From: a virus | Taxonomy: Duplodnaviria > Heunggongvirae > Uroviricota > Caudoviricetes | Strand: one strand, 5' to 3' | DNA: 43,737 nucleotides | Virus record (IMG/VR): IMGVR_UViG_3300005758_000044 | Location: 64,001 to 107,737 of that record | Shown: positions 14,513 through 17,200 of the stretch, one piece after another | Position numbering within the stretch: the first letter of the stretch is position 1 | How the letters are laid out: every line of letters starts with the position of its first letter | The notes under the pieces: model-generated | The model's database searches: none | The model's input: only the letters and a program-made list of their open reading frames with translations | Told to the model about the DNA's origin: nothing | Made by a program: the position numbers and the translations under genes

Positions 14513-14872
14513 ATGATAAAAGCAATCTTAACAAGTATGTTATTGTCCATATCAGTAATGGCATCAGAAAAAACATTGTTGAGTGAGGTTATAGATTTGA
14601 CCAAAGAGAAAATTTCAAATGAAATCATTGTTGATTATATCAAGACGAAACCATTGTTGATTAAGTTATCTGCTCAGAATATAATTGAATTAAAGAAAGA
14701 AAAAGTTGATGATGCGGTTGTGAAATTTTTGATTCAAAAGTCTGAGTATGAAGAGAAGATTAAACTGGTGTTGGATAACTATGACAAAATAGTTGAATAT
14801 AACAACTACATATATTTTCAAAAAACATATTTGGAGCCGAGAGCAAAAGCTATGGCTGTCAAATATAATTGA
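14513..14872 (+). CDS. Secreted helical hypothetical protein
   Basis: Signal peptide ..SVMA; EVIDLTKEKISNEIIVDYI..LSAQNIIELKKEKVDDAVV. Confidence 0.7.
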   Translation: MIKAILTSMLLSISVMASEKTLLSEVIDLTKEKISNEIIVDYIKTKPLLIKLSAQNIIELKKEKVDDAVVKFLIQKSEYEEKIKLVLDNYDKIVEYNNYIYFQKTYLEPRAKAMAVKYN

Positions 14873-14874
14873 AT

Positions 14875-15187
14875 TTGACACAAGTGACTCTACGCTGGTG
14901 TAAATAACACTAGAGGAAGTTCGCTGCTGCACAGCAGATGATTGGGAGGACATAAGTTAACTTCAAATTGCCCACAACGATTAAAAGATTGCAATTCCGT
15001 GGAAGCAAGGAGCAATCCGGTTAACCTCAGTCCGTTAAAACCACAAATTAGCAGTAATCCTAAATAACCCGAGTGTAGTGCTGCACGTTGAAGGGTGAGG
15101 TTGGAGCAGTTGTTTTTAACGAACAACCAGTAGTAATACTGAGAGAAATGTAGGGATAAAACAGAACAGCGGCTATGGCTGTGTCAA
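14875..15187 (+). ncRNA. rnpB: RNase P RNA (phage-encoded)
   Basis: GAGGAAGTTCGCTG (14913-14926) pairs as P4 with ACAGAACAGCGGCTAT (15161-15176); P1 TTGACACA/TGTGTCAA; GAGAGAAATG CR-IV-like; ~313 nt. Confidence 0.8.
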
Positions 15188-15284
15188 AAATCTTGTGGTG
15201 GTTTGACCACGGCGTGAGGGACACGATACACCCCTGTATGTCTGACCCGGACGAAACGACCCGTAAGGGTAGGGTTGAATTTTG

Positions 15285-15494
15285 ATGAAAACATACAAGT
15301 TAACAGAGCTTAAAGCCGGAGAAAAAGGGCGAATTGTTGAAGTTAACATTGATAGTCAACGGTTAAAAGAACTTGGCATTATTCGTGGTGCAATTATAAC
15401 CGTAGTTACAAACAATTTAATTTGTATGATTTGTAATACCCGAATTTGTTTGGGTAAACCGATGACAGACAATATCATCGTTGAAAAGATGTGA
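15285..15494 (+). CDS. feoA: FeoA-family (SH3-like) protein
   Basis: LTELKAGEKGRIVEV...RLKELGIIRGAII...TRICLG...IIVE. Confidence 0.8.
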   Translation: MKTYKLTELKAGEKGRIVEVNIDSQRLKELGIIRGAIITVVTNNLICMICNTRICLGKPMTDNIIVEKM

Positions 15495-16816: not shown

Positions 16817-17200
16817 GGGCGTGTACTGGTTTCGATTCAAAAATGTAGGTGTGCTAGGCACGTAGAGGACGATAGTTGGCCTCTTTAATCATCTATCAAA
16901 ATATAACTGCTAACAAGAAGAGCAAAGTAGTAAGCTACGACTTCACTTCCCGTGAGGCCGTTGCTCTCGCAGCCTAAGTTGCTGCACATCTTTTATGATG
17001 ATGTCTGATAATTGTAAAAGATGATAAACATCAGGCTAGATAACAATTTGTTTGGGATTGTTGTTGATCTTCTACCAGACACCATCAACATAAAGTTTGT
17101 TGTTTTAGATTTGTGTTGATGTAACAAAAAACAACTAAGCGTGTAGTCTGGTATACTTTAAGTTTTGAAGACGCGAGTTCGACTCTCGCCACGTCCACCA
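16817..17200 (+). ncRNA. ssrA: tmRNA; tag ANKKSKVVSYDFTSREAVALAA (16909-16977)
   Basis: GGGCGTG..TGGTTTCGA 5' end, G3.U70, GCGAG-TTCGACT-CTCGC T-arm, ACCA end, ATAACT-GCT resume context, LAA end. Confidence 0.95.

Follow-up and report, generated by a model that had tools for sequence, protein, structure and literature searches.

The window analyzed here is a stretch of 43,737 nucleotides comprising bases 64001-107737 of a 107.7-kb IMG/VR virus record, the completeness of which is estimated at 31%. Relatives of baseplate-wedge and head proteins are encoded in it, and its RNA genes include 25 tRNAs, a tmRNA, and a GOLLD RNA. Given these structural-protein relatives and the tRNA region, the window is therefore considered part of a large tailed phage. 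Adjoining the tRNA array, at window 14874-15188 on the plus strand, is an RNA element that folds into the architecture of a bacterial RNase P RNA. RNase P RNA, which is among the few ribozymes found universally, has been treated as a strictly cellular (and organellar) gene.

The surroundings of the element contain several other features. The GOLLD RNA (4006-4468; Rfam, 212 bits) has a tRNA-Thr gene (4072-4143) nested inside it; CCA is encoded in every annotated tRNA of the window except this one. The tRNA at 3308-3383 carries the anticodon CUA of an amber suppressor (labeled "Pyl" by ARAGORN), and UAG may be read as an amino acid in part of the phage genome. A tRNA at 2454-2524 (Rfam, 49.3 bits), which is not listed by ARAGORN, contains AGCATTA at 2505-2511, the unusual loop sequence to which the initial annotation refers. 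The tmRNA lies at 16817-17200 (Rfam, 161.7 bits) and specifies the tag peptide ANKKSKVVSYDFTSREAVALAA; tmRNAs near an RNase P-like RNA were also found in the relatives L072, L417, L430, L473, and L234. Upstream, an open reading frame (ORF) of 119 amino acids (14513-14872) with a signal-peptide-like start ends one base 5' of the RNA. Its place is taken by a tRNA gene in the relatives L234, L035, L069, and L072, and the ORF therefore looks like an insertion into the array. Downstream, a G+C-rich stretch (15189-15285) with three hairpins (-28.9 kcal/mol) lies directly 3' of the RNA and directly precedes a FeoA-like ORF of 70 amino acids (15282-15494); this stretch has no Rfam family match and is missing from the flanks of close relatives. 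A scan for promoters and terminators beside the RNase P-like RNA returned nothing clear or convincing.

The initial annotation had placed the element at 14875-15187. Its ends are set by P1 at 14874 and 15188, one base wider on each side. Three relatives (L233, L234, and L245) are nearly identical to the window RNA through the end of P1 and diverge completely right beyond it, which fixes the 3' boundary at 15188. Rfam structure-annotated alignments of E. coli rnpB and of a Peribacillus rnpB served as reference maps, and the coordinates of the parts were corrected by hand where short strings recur. The parts are as follows.

14874..14882, plus strand: 5' strand of P1, UUUGACACA, pairing with 15180-15188; its sequence differs in every family member
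14888..14893, plus strand: 5' strand of P2, CUCUAC, followed by an invariant GC; pairs with 15150-15155
14895..14913, plus strand: P3 hairpin, CUGGUGU / ACACUAG, by direct reading; covaries with L114 (CUGGGGA/UCCUUAG) and others
14912..14926, plus strand: CR-I, that is J3/4 GAGGAA and the P4 5' strand AGUUCGCUG with bulged U14921; aligned by Infernal without gaps against GAGGAAAGUCCGG in L453
14927..14930, plus strand: 5' strand of P5, CUGC, pairing with GCAG at 15051-15054
14932..14936, plus strand: 5' strand of the P6 pseudoknot, CAGCA; its complement UGCUG (15079-15083) is partly in the P17 loop and partly beside it
14937..15050, plus strand: reduced specificity (S) domain, 114 nt, with the conserved blocks GGGAG, CGUUA, and ACCACAAAU in the alignment
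15051..15057, plus strand: 3' strand of P5, GCAG, and J5/15 UAA (type A consensus, GgaGCAA)
15058..15105, plus strand: P15-P16-P17 arm, with the same architecture in independent minimum free energy (MFE) folds of 17/18 members
15058-15060 and 15103-15105, plus strand: P15, UCC / GGA, followed by J15/16 UAAAUA
15067-15070 and 15093-15096, plus strand: P16, ACCC / GGGU
15073-15086, plus strand: P17 hairpin
15099-15101, plus strand: GGU of J16/15, in the 3' internal loop of P15/P16
15109..15127, plus strand: additional hairpin, located between P15 and P18 and resembling the P15.1 of type B; each of its 6 pairs shows compensatory changes
15128..15141, plus strand: P18, a hairpin closed by the GNRA tetraloop GUAA (GUAA, GCAA, or GAAA in relatives); compensatory changes are seen in each of its 5 pairs
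15142..15155, plus strand: J18/2 block AGAGAAAUG (15142-15150) and 3' strand of P2, GUAGGG; AGA..AAUG is invariant
15156..15176, plus strand: CR-V, that is J2/4 AAAACAGAA and the P4 3' strand CAGCGGCU (15167-15174)
15180..15188, plus strand: 3' strand of P1, UGUGUCAAA, the 3' boundary of the element

Apart from the S-domain, these parts make up a catalytic (C) domain that is complete by comparison with bacterial RNase P RNA. J5/15 UAA (15055-15057) occupies the position of A248/A249 of E. coli. P15 has only 3 bp, and P6 is short in the lineage of the window, with 3 loop bases and 2 bases that overlap the P17 stem. Two other assignments were considered and dropped: GCAGUAA as CR-III, where covariation shows P5 (4 bp) and J5/15, and a long P5 with the P17 region, where covariation shows the 4-bp P5 and the P6 pseudoknot. 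The S-domain, which in bacteria is the reader of the tRNA elbow, is present as a 114-nt remnant with no confident mapping onto P7-P14. Its block ACCACAAAU resembles CR-II (CcACAGAAA), and neither P12-P14 nor an alignable CR-III was found in it. The size of this domain varies within the family, from the 114 nt seen here to ~39 nt in L234, where ~75 nt of the inner domain is missing relative to the window RNA, and to a short three-way junction in the smallest members.

Both P4 strands named in the initial annotation are indeed present, AGUUCGCUG at 14918-14926 and CAGCGGCU at 15167-15174, and they form eight pairs with a single bulged U. On the outer side, A14918-U15174, G14919-C15173, and U14920.G15172 are followed by the bulged U14921; on the inner side are C14922-G15171, G14923-C15170, C14924-G15169, U14925-A15168, and G14926-C15167. 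The 5' strand is preceded by GAGGAA (14913-14918), which is invariant across 97 elements, while the two bases that follow it depart from the consensus. The 3' strand is preceded by ACAGAA (15161-15166), giving a CR-V of ACAGAA and a P4 strand ending in GGCU.A (15161-15175), with ACAGGA and ACAAAA as variants in relatives. CR-I and CR-V of the relative L453 align gap-free to the type A consensus in Infernal, so that the geometry of P4 is canonical. What marks the phage family is the replacement of the two pairs below the bulge, A-U and G-C, by G-C and U.G. These two positions, A67-U359 and G68-C358 in E. coli numbering (with the bulge at U69), are among the most conserved and differ here from all cellular consensus sequences.

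Searches with this copy itself did not recover RNase P RNA. No RNase P match was obtained in an Rfam scan of the window at the gathering score, in a scan of 14700-15400 at E ≤ 10, with the RF00010 model against the whole record of the window, or in an Rfam scan of six close relatives, so that the search with the bacterial Rfam models suggested as a check in the initial annotation was negative for this copy; this outcome is one half of what the annotation had named as refuting its reading, and it counts against that reading. Likewise, blastn against 50,697 deposited phage genomes gave no match. A plain MFE fold of 313 nt was no better than shuffled sequences (z = -1.05), which is expected because the RNA is pseudoknotted. 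Since the direct Rfam test was negative, the identity of the element rests on family evidence.

Relatives were initially sought by 14-mer scans of viral contigs, the matches of which were mostly due to chance and needed screening by blastn. The relatives obtained in these scans are 215-395 nt long and contain both conserved blocks in the same order. A composite pattern of J18/2 and CR-V recovered 10 viral and 23 metagenome stretches, whereas a search of 185,579 bacterial and archaeal species, each represented by a single genome, recovered none; five metagenome matches (L237, L239, L243, L246, and L248) were chance matches inside a protein gene and were excluded. When the four inner P4 bases were relaxed, at least 119 viral loci were found. 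A control pattern in which the spacing between ACAGAA and GGCUA was one base too long gave 28 chance matches, none of them RNase P-like. The RNA is a member of a large family that is restricted to contigs of viruses and metagenomes and, as a rule, sits in arrays of tRNA genes. Of its 97 or more distinct elements, many are on contigs of 100-500 kb, nearly all lie within tRNA arrays, and some are beside a tmRNA; relatives also lie directly after tRNAs. Because the J18/2 and CR-V blocks were used to retrieve the members, the conservation of these two blocks is partly a matter of ascertainment, which leaves the covariation counts unaffected. The copies in L233, L234, and L245 have unrelated flanks, and the base changes seen among close relatives are structure-neutral, such as GUAA to GCAA in the P18 loop. 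The shortest members of the family are ~190-250 nt. On each of two phage contigs, two RNase P-like RNA copies lie close together according to matches of the covariance model described below (L422:10184-10405 and L476:1894-2511). The tRNA arrays of relatives also have weak, sub-threshold Rfam matches next to tRNAs: one to an HDV-like ribozyme, directly after a tRNA (L088:5656-5725; 24.4 bits, E 2), and one to a Y RNA-like element, YrlA (L464:1299-1413; 37.7 bits, E 1e-4).

In 97 elements, covariation in the long-range helices was assessed by testing every 5' strand for complementarity to the 3' strand of the same sequence and, as a permuted control, to 3' strands from the other sequences. The inner four base pairs of P4 were complementary to the own strand in 96.9% of cases versus 14.6% after permutation, with 27 pair combinations, which bears out the proposal in the initial annotation that P4 has undergone a compensatory change while keeping the bulged U. 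Values for P2 (6 bp) were 92.8% versus 7.1% with 49 different strands, and for P5 (4 bp and YAA) 85.6% versus 19.3% with 29 different strands; P5 followed by YAA was present in 17/18 close members. For P1 (at least 7 bp), the values were 89.7% and 67.8%, a weak control that is uninformative in A+T-rich DNA. Independent MFE folds of the segment from J5/15 to J18/2 gave the same P15/P16/P17 arm in 17/18 members, and the arrangement of J5/15 UAA and the GGU loop was the same in 17/18 folds. The P6 pairing between the loop and the upstream strand has at least five pairs per member, with a different sequence in each (e.g., AACUC/GAGUU, AAACU/AGUUU, GGAAC/GUUCC, GUUUC/GAAAC, and GGACA/UGUCC). In addition, a covariance model built from the 3' half of the phage RNAs only (R1), in which P17 was missed by RNAalifold, was used to realign 20 and then 62 distinct sequences. 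All 17 modeled pairs (P15, P16, the extra hairpin, and P18) showed double-sided changes, and paired cells amounted to 92.3% versus 60.2% when shuffled (20 sequences) and 94.5% versus 52.8% (62 sequences), with 32-49% when the partner was slid (34-49% for the 20 sequences).

Evidence that this conserved structure is an RNase P RNA comes from several searches. Models of the Rfam RNase P clan matched exactly on the element in 9/23 relatives tested, at scores (25.7-94.7 bits) that are all below the gathering thresholds (100 bits for RF00010 and 97 bits for RF00011). The type A model matched L461 (94.7 bits, 1.5e-27), L453 (84.6 bits, 3e-24), L485 (79.6 bits, 1.8e-22), and L426 (49.7 bits, 2.6e-12); the archaeal model matched L454 (1.1e-7), L421 (1e-6), L474 (9e-4), and L463 (0.045); and L255, which has the exact P4 of the window, matched the type B model (E 0.0044). 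R1 ties the window to the Rfam-positive relatives L426, L454, L474, L421, and L463 (E 1e-4 to 1e-8). When R1 was searched against whole bacterial genomes, the 3' half of rnpB was the best match in 3/5 (E 0.0014-0.0026 per genome); rnpB was the second best match in E. coli (E 8.5) and was not the best match in a 4.9-Mb Peribacillus genome. A family profile searched by nhmmer against 0.9 Mb of bacterial loci gave 17 weak matches, and 13 of the 17, including the top eight, were inside rnpB, on the correct strand and at collinear positions (background, 3.1%). Together, the architecture, the covariation, the sub-threshold Rfam matches on relatives, and the reciprocal model search support what the initial annotation had proposed, a phage-encoded RNase P RNA.

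The correspondence with the bacterial consensus extends over the following blocks:

CR-I: bacterial consensus GAGGAAAGUCC; phage family GAGGAAGUUC
J5/15: bacterial consensus GCAA; phage family YAA
J15/16: bacterial consensus AAAUAG; phage family AAAUA
J16/15: bacterial consensus CGGGUA; phage family GGU
J18/2: bacterial consensus CuAGAugAAUG; phage family AGAGAAAUG
CR-V: bacterial consensus ACAGAACCCGGCUUA; phage family ACAGAA-N4-GGCUA

With type A (RF00010; E. coli M1 RNA, rnpB), the phage RNA shares the order of P1-P5, the P4 pseudoknot with its bulged U, GAGGAA in J3/4, YAA in J5/15, the succession of P15, AAAUA, P16, and P17, the P6 loop pairing, GGU in J16/15, the GNRA-capped P18, AGA..AAUG in J18/2, and ACAGAA..GGCU.A in CR-V. 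Unlike type A, this copy has no Rfam match and its relatives all fall under the gathering score of 100; G-C and U.G stand below the P4 bulge rather than A-U and G-C; P8-P14 (including P13 and P14) are absent or unrecognizable, and an extra hairpin lies between P15 and P18; and the gene is phage-encoded, without a linked rnpA. Resemblances to type B (RF00011; Bacillus type) are the presence of two hairpins (P15.1 and P18) in the stretch from P15 to J18/2, a P19-like hairpin that some relatives (L069, L088, L035, and L072) have between P2 and CR-V, a block CCC..GGUAGGGGCA before the next hairpin that is nearly identical in L088 and L247, and the fact that the best bacterial matches of R1 are short type B rnpB genes. 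However, the phage RNA has P16, P17, and P6, which type B lacks, and no recognizable P5.1 or P10.1. The element therefore mixes features of types A and B. We classify it as an RNase P RNA homolog that represents a separate lineage carried by phages; it is not filed under RF00010 or RF00011, whose thresholds it failed.

Reduction of RNase P RNA has cellular parallels. In the archaeal type T RNA (Thermoproteaceae; RF02357) and the 276-nt RNA of Mycoplasma fermentans, the catalytic domain is kept and the S-domain is lost or minimal, and each is the only RNase P RNA of its cell. The phage RNA, in contrast, would be an extra copy brought by a virus, and it has another lineage and signature; the Rfam type T model had no match on the window or on the relatives scanned. 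A full-text search of about eight million papers and preprints found no report of a bacteriophage-encoded RNase P RNA, and the only viral precedent found in the searched literature was an inactive look-alike in orthopoxviruses (PMC3001073). The statement in the initial annotation that such RNAs are unusual in phages thus holds for the searched literature but not for the sequence data, in which the family is frequently encountered on large phage contigs. The orthopoxvirus RNA is likewise virus-encoded and was proposed to resemble RNase P RNA; its structural likeness is loose, it showed no cleavage of pre-tRNA, and a decoy role was once discussed for it (PMC3001073). The phage RNA differs in keeping the whole catalytic core with covariation and in belonging to a bacterial virus, and cleavage is predicted for it. 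Theta (HDV-like) ribozymes are also phage-encoded, lie in tRNA regions, and have been suggested to assume one of the steps in the maturation of tRNA ends (PMC10879173). They are small, self-cleaving, and act in cis on 3' trailers, whereas the phage RNase P-type RNA is predicted to act in trans on 5' leaders.

The putative substrates are next to the element. Among the tRNAs of the window, U at -1 is present in 20/25 (T content of the region, 29%), G at +1 in 21/25, and an encoded CCA in 24/25, and the spacers between the tRNA genes are short and A/T. As judged from their genes, these tRNAs would suit an RNase P-type enzyme. The RNA has kept the parts that build the active site (P4 with its bulge, J3/4, J2/4, and J5/15) and the dock for the acceptor end (the GGU loop); this loop is of the kind that binds the 3'-CCA of tRNA, a predicted pairing here. 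The initial annotation had further suggested an adaptation to the many non-canonical tRNA elbows of this phage, which the data do not support: the T-loops are ordinary UUCRANU in 22/25 annotated tRNAs of the window, and AGCATTA is not enriched (9 found versus 5.5 expected; 12/100 shuffles reach 9). Moreover, a reduced S-domain would read elbows less, not differently. Regarding the protein partner, no RnpA gene (PF00825) was found in the record of the window or in five other phage records that carry the RNA, four of which are at least 98% complete (358-494 kb); because the record of the window is only ~31% complete, its result covers the sequenced part rather than the whole phage. From the lack of RnpA in these phage records, we infer that RnpA of the host is used. 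In bacterial RNase P, it is established that RnpA contacts the regions corresponding to the best-conserved blocks of the family.

Based on these considerations, window 14874-15188 (plus strand) is probably a gene from which the phage makes a functional RNase P RNA of reduced size, a reading to which we assign a probability of about 0.7. The RNA would be transcribed together with the tRNA region during infection and would assemble with host RnpA, and the resulting holoenzyme would cut the 5' leaders off the phage's own pre-tRNAs, with their U-1, G+1, and encoded CCA; the phage tmRNA may be processed too. In this way, maturation of the phage tRNAs would become independent of the expression of host rnpB.

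Other explanations need to be weighed against this one. That the element is a decaying, functionless relic of a captured host rnpB, or a chance likeness in an unrelated structured RNA, might be suggested by the lack of an Rfam match for this copy, by an MFE of the region no better than that of shuffled sequences, and by the truncated S-domain. This is highly improbable and is already contradicted by the covariation, since compensatory changes have preserved all core helices in no fewer than 97 distinct elements; near-identical copies also occur in different flanks, none is found in 185,579 cellular genomes, relatives have significant Rfam matches, and the wrong-spacing control gives none. A genuine homolog could instead have no part in tRNA cleavage and serve as a decoy or regulator: by binding host RnpA or pre-tRNAs, it would damp or redirect host tRNA maturation during take-over. 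Several observations would agree with such a role, namely (i) the failure to find an RnpA gene in the phage records searched, (ii) the protein-contacting J18/2 and J2/4 as the best conserved blocks, (iii) non-canonical bases at two near-universal P4 positions, and (iv) the reduced S-domain, along with the role once discussed for the inactive orthopoxvirus RNA (PMC3001073). However, what ~100 divergent members keep are features of catalysis and docking, not of protein binding (the P4 geometry with its bulged U, the J5/15 adenosines, the GGU loop, and P6), and the phage tRNAs retain the U-1, G+1, and CCA suited to cleavage, which makes a decoy unlikely.

Less probable still is an active RNase P-type ribozyme that acts mainly on other RNAs of the array (the tmRNA, the GOLLD RNA, or orphan tRNA-like elements) or that works with an unrecognized phage protein instead of RnpA. 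The window does contain a tmRNA, a GOLLD RNA, and non-tRNA structured elements between the tRNAs, the S-domain is remodeled, and pre-tmRNA is known to be processed by bacterial RNase P (PMC11143913); yet nothing sets these RNAs apart from the tRNAs here, and the GGU loop and encoded CCA fit ordinary pre-tRNA recognition. A more far-reaching version of the preferred reading, the active RNase P RNA that matures phage tRNAs, would have the stripped-down ribozyme act as a device of host takeover, which captures RnpA or acts protein-free, has lost elbow reading, and prefers the CCA-bearing U(-1) pre-tRNAs of the phage. We regard this as a tentative idea that is somewhat doubtful at present.

If the phage RNA is active, 5' tRNA maturation would be added to the translation functions with which large phages are equipped, next to tRNAs, tmRNA, and ribosomal proteins, and the family would offer ~100 natural experiments in ribozyme minimization, with members of 190-250 nt. 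The two near-invariant base pairs below the P4 bulge are shown to be swappable. Since every member scores below the Rfam thresholds, the family also exposes a blind spot in standard annotation. Should the takeover idea hold as well, phage translation would be supplied despite a shut-off of host rnpB or defense nucleases that attack host tRNAs, and the family would represent the smallest natural bacterial-type RNase P RNAs together with a tolerated rewrite of two near-universal P4 pairs.
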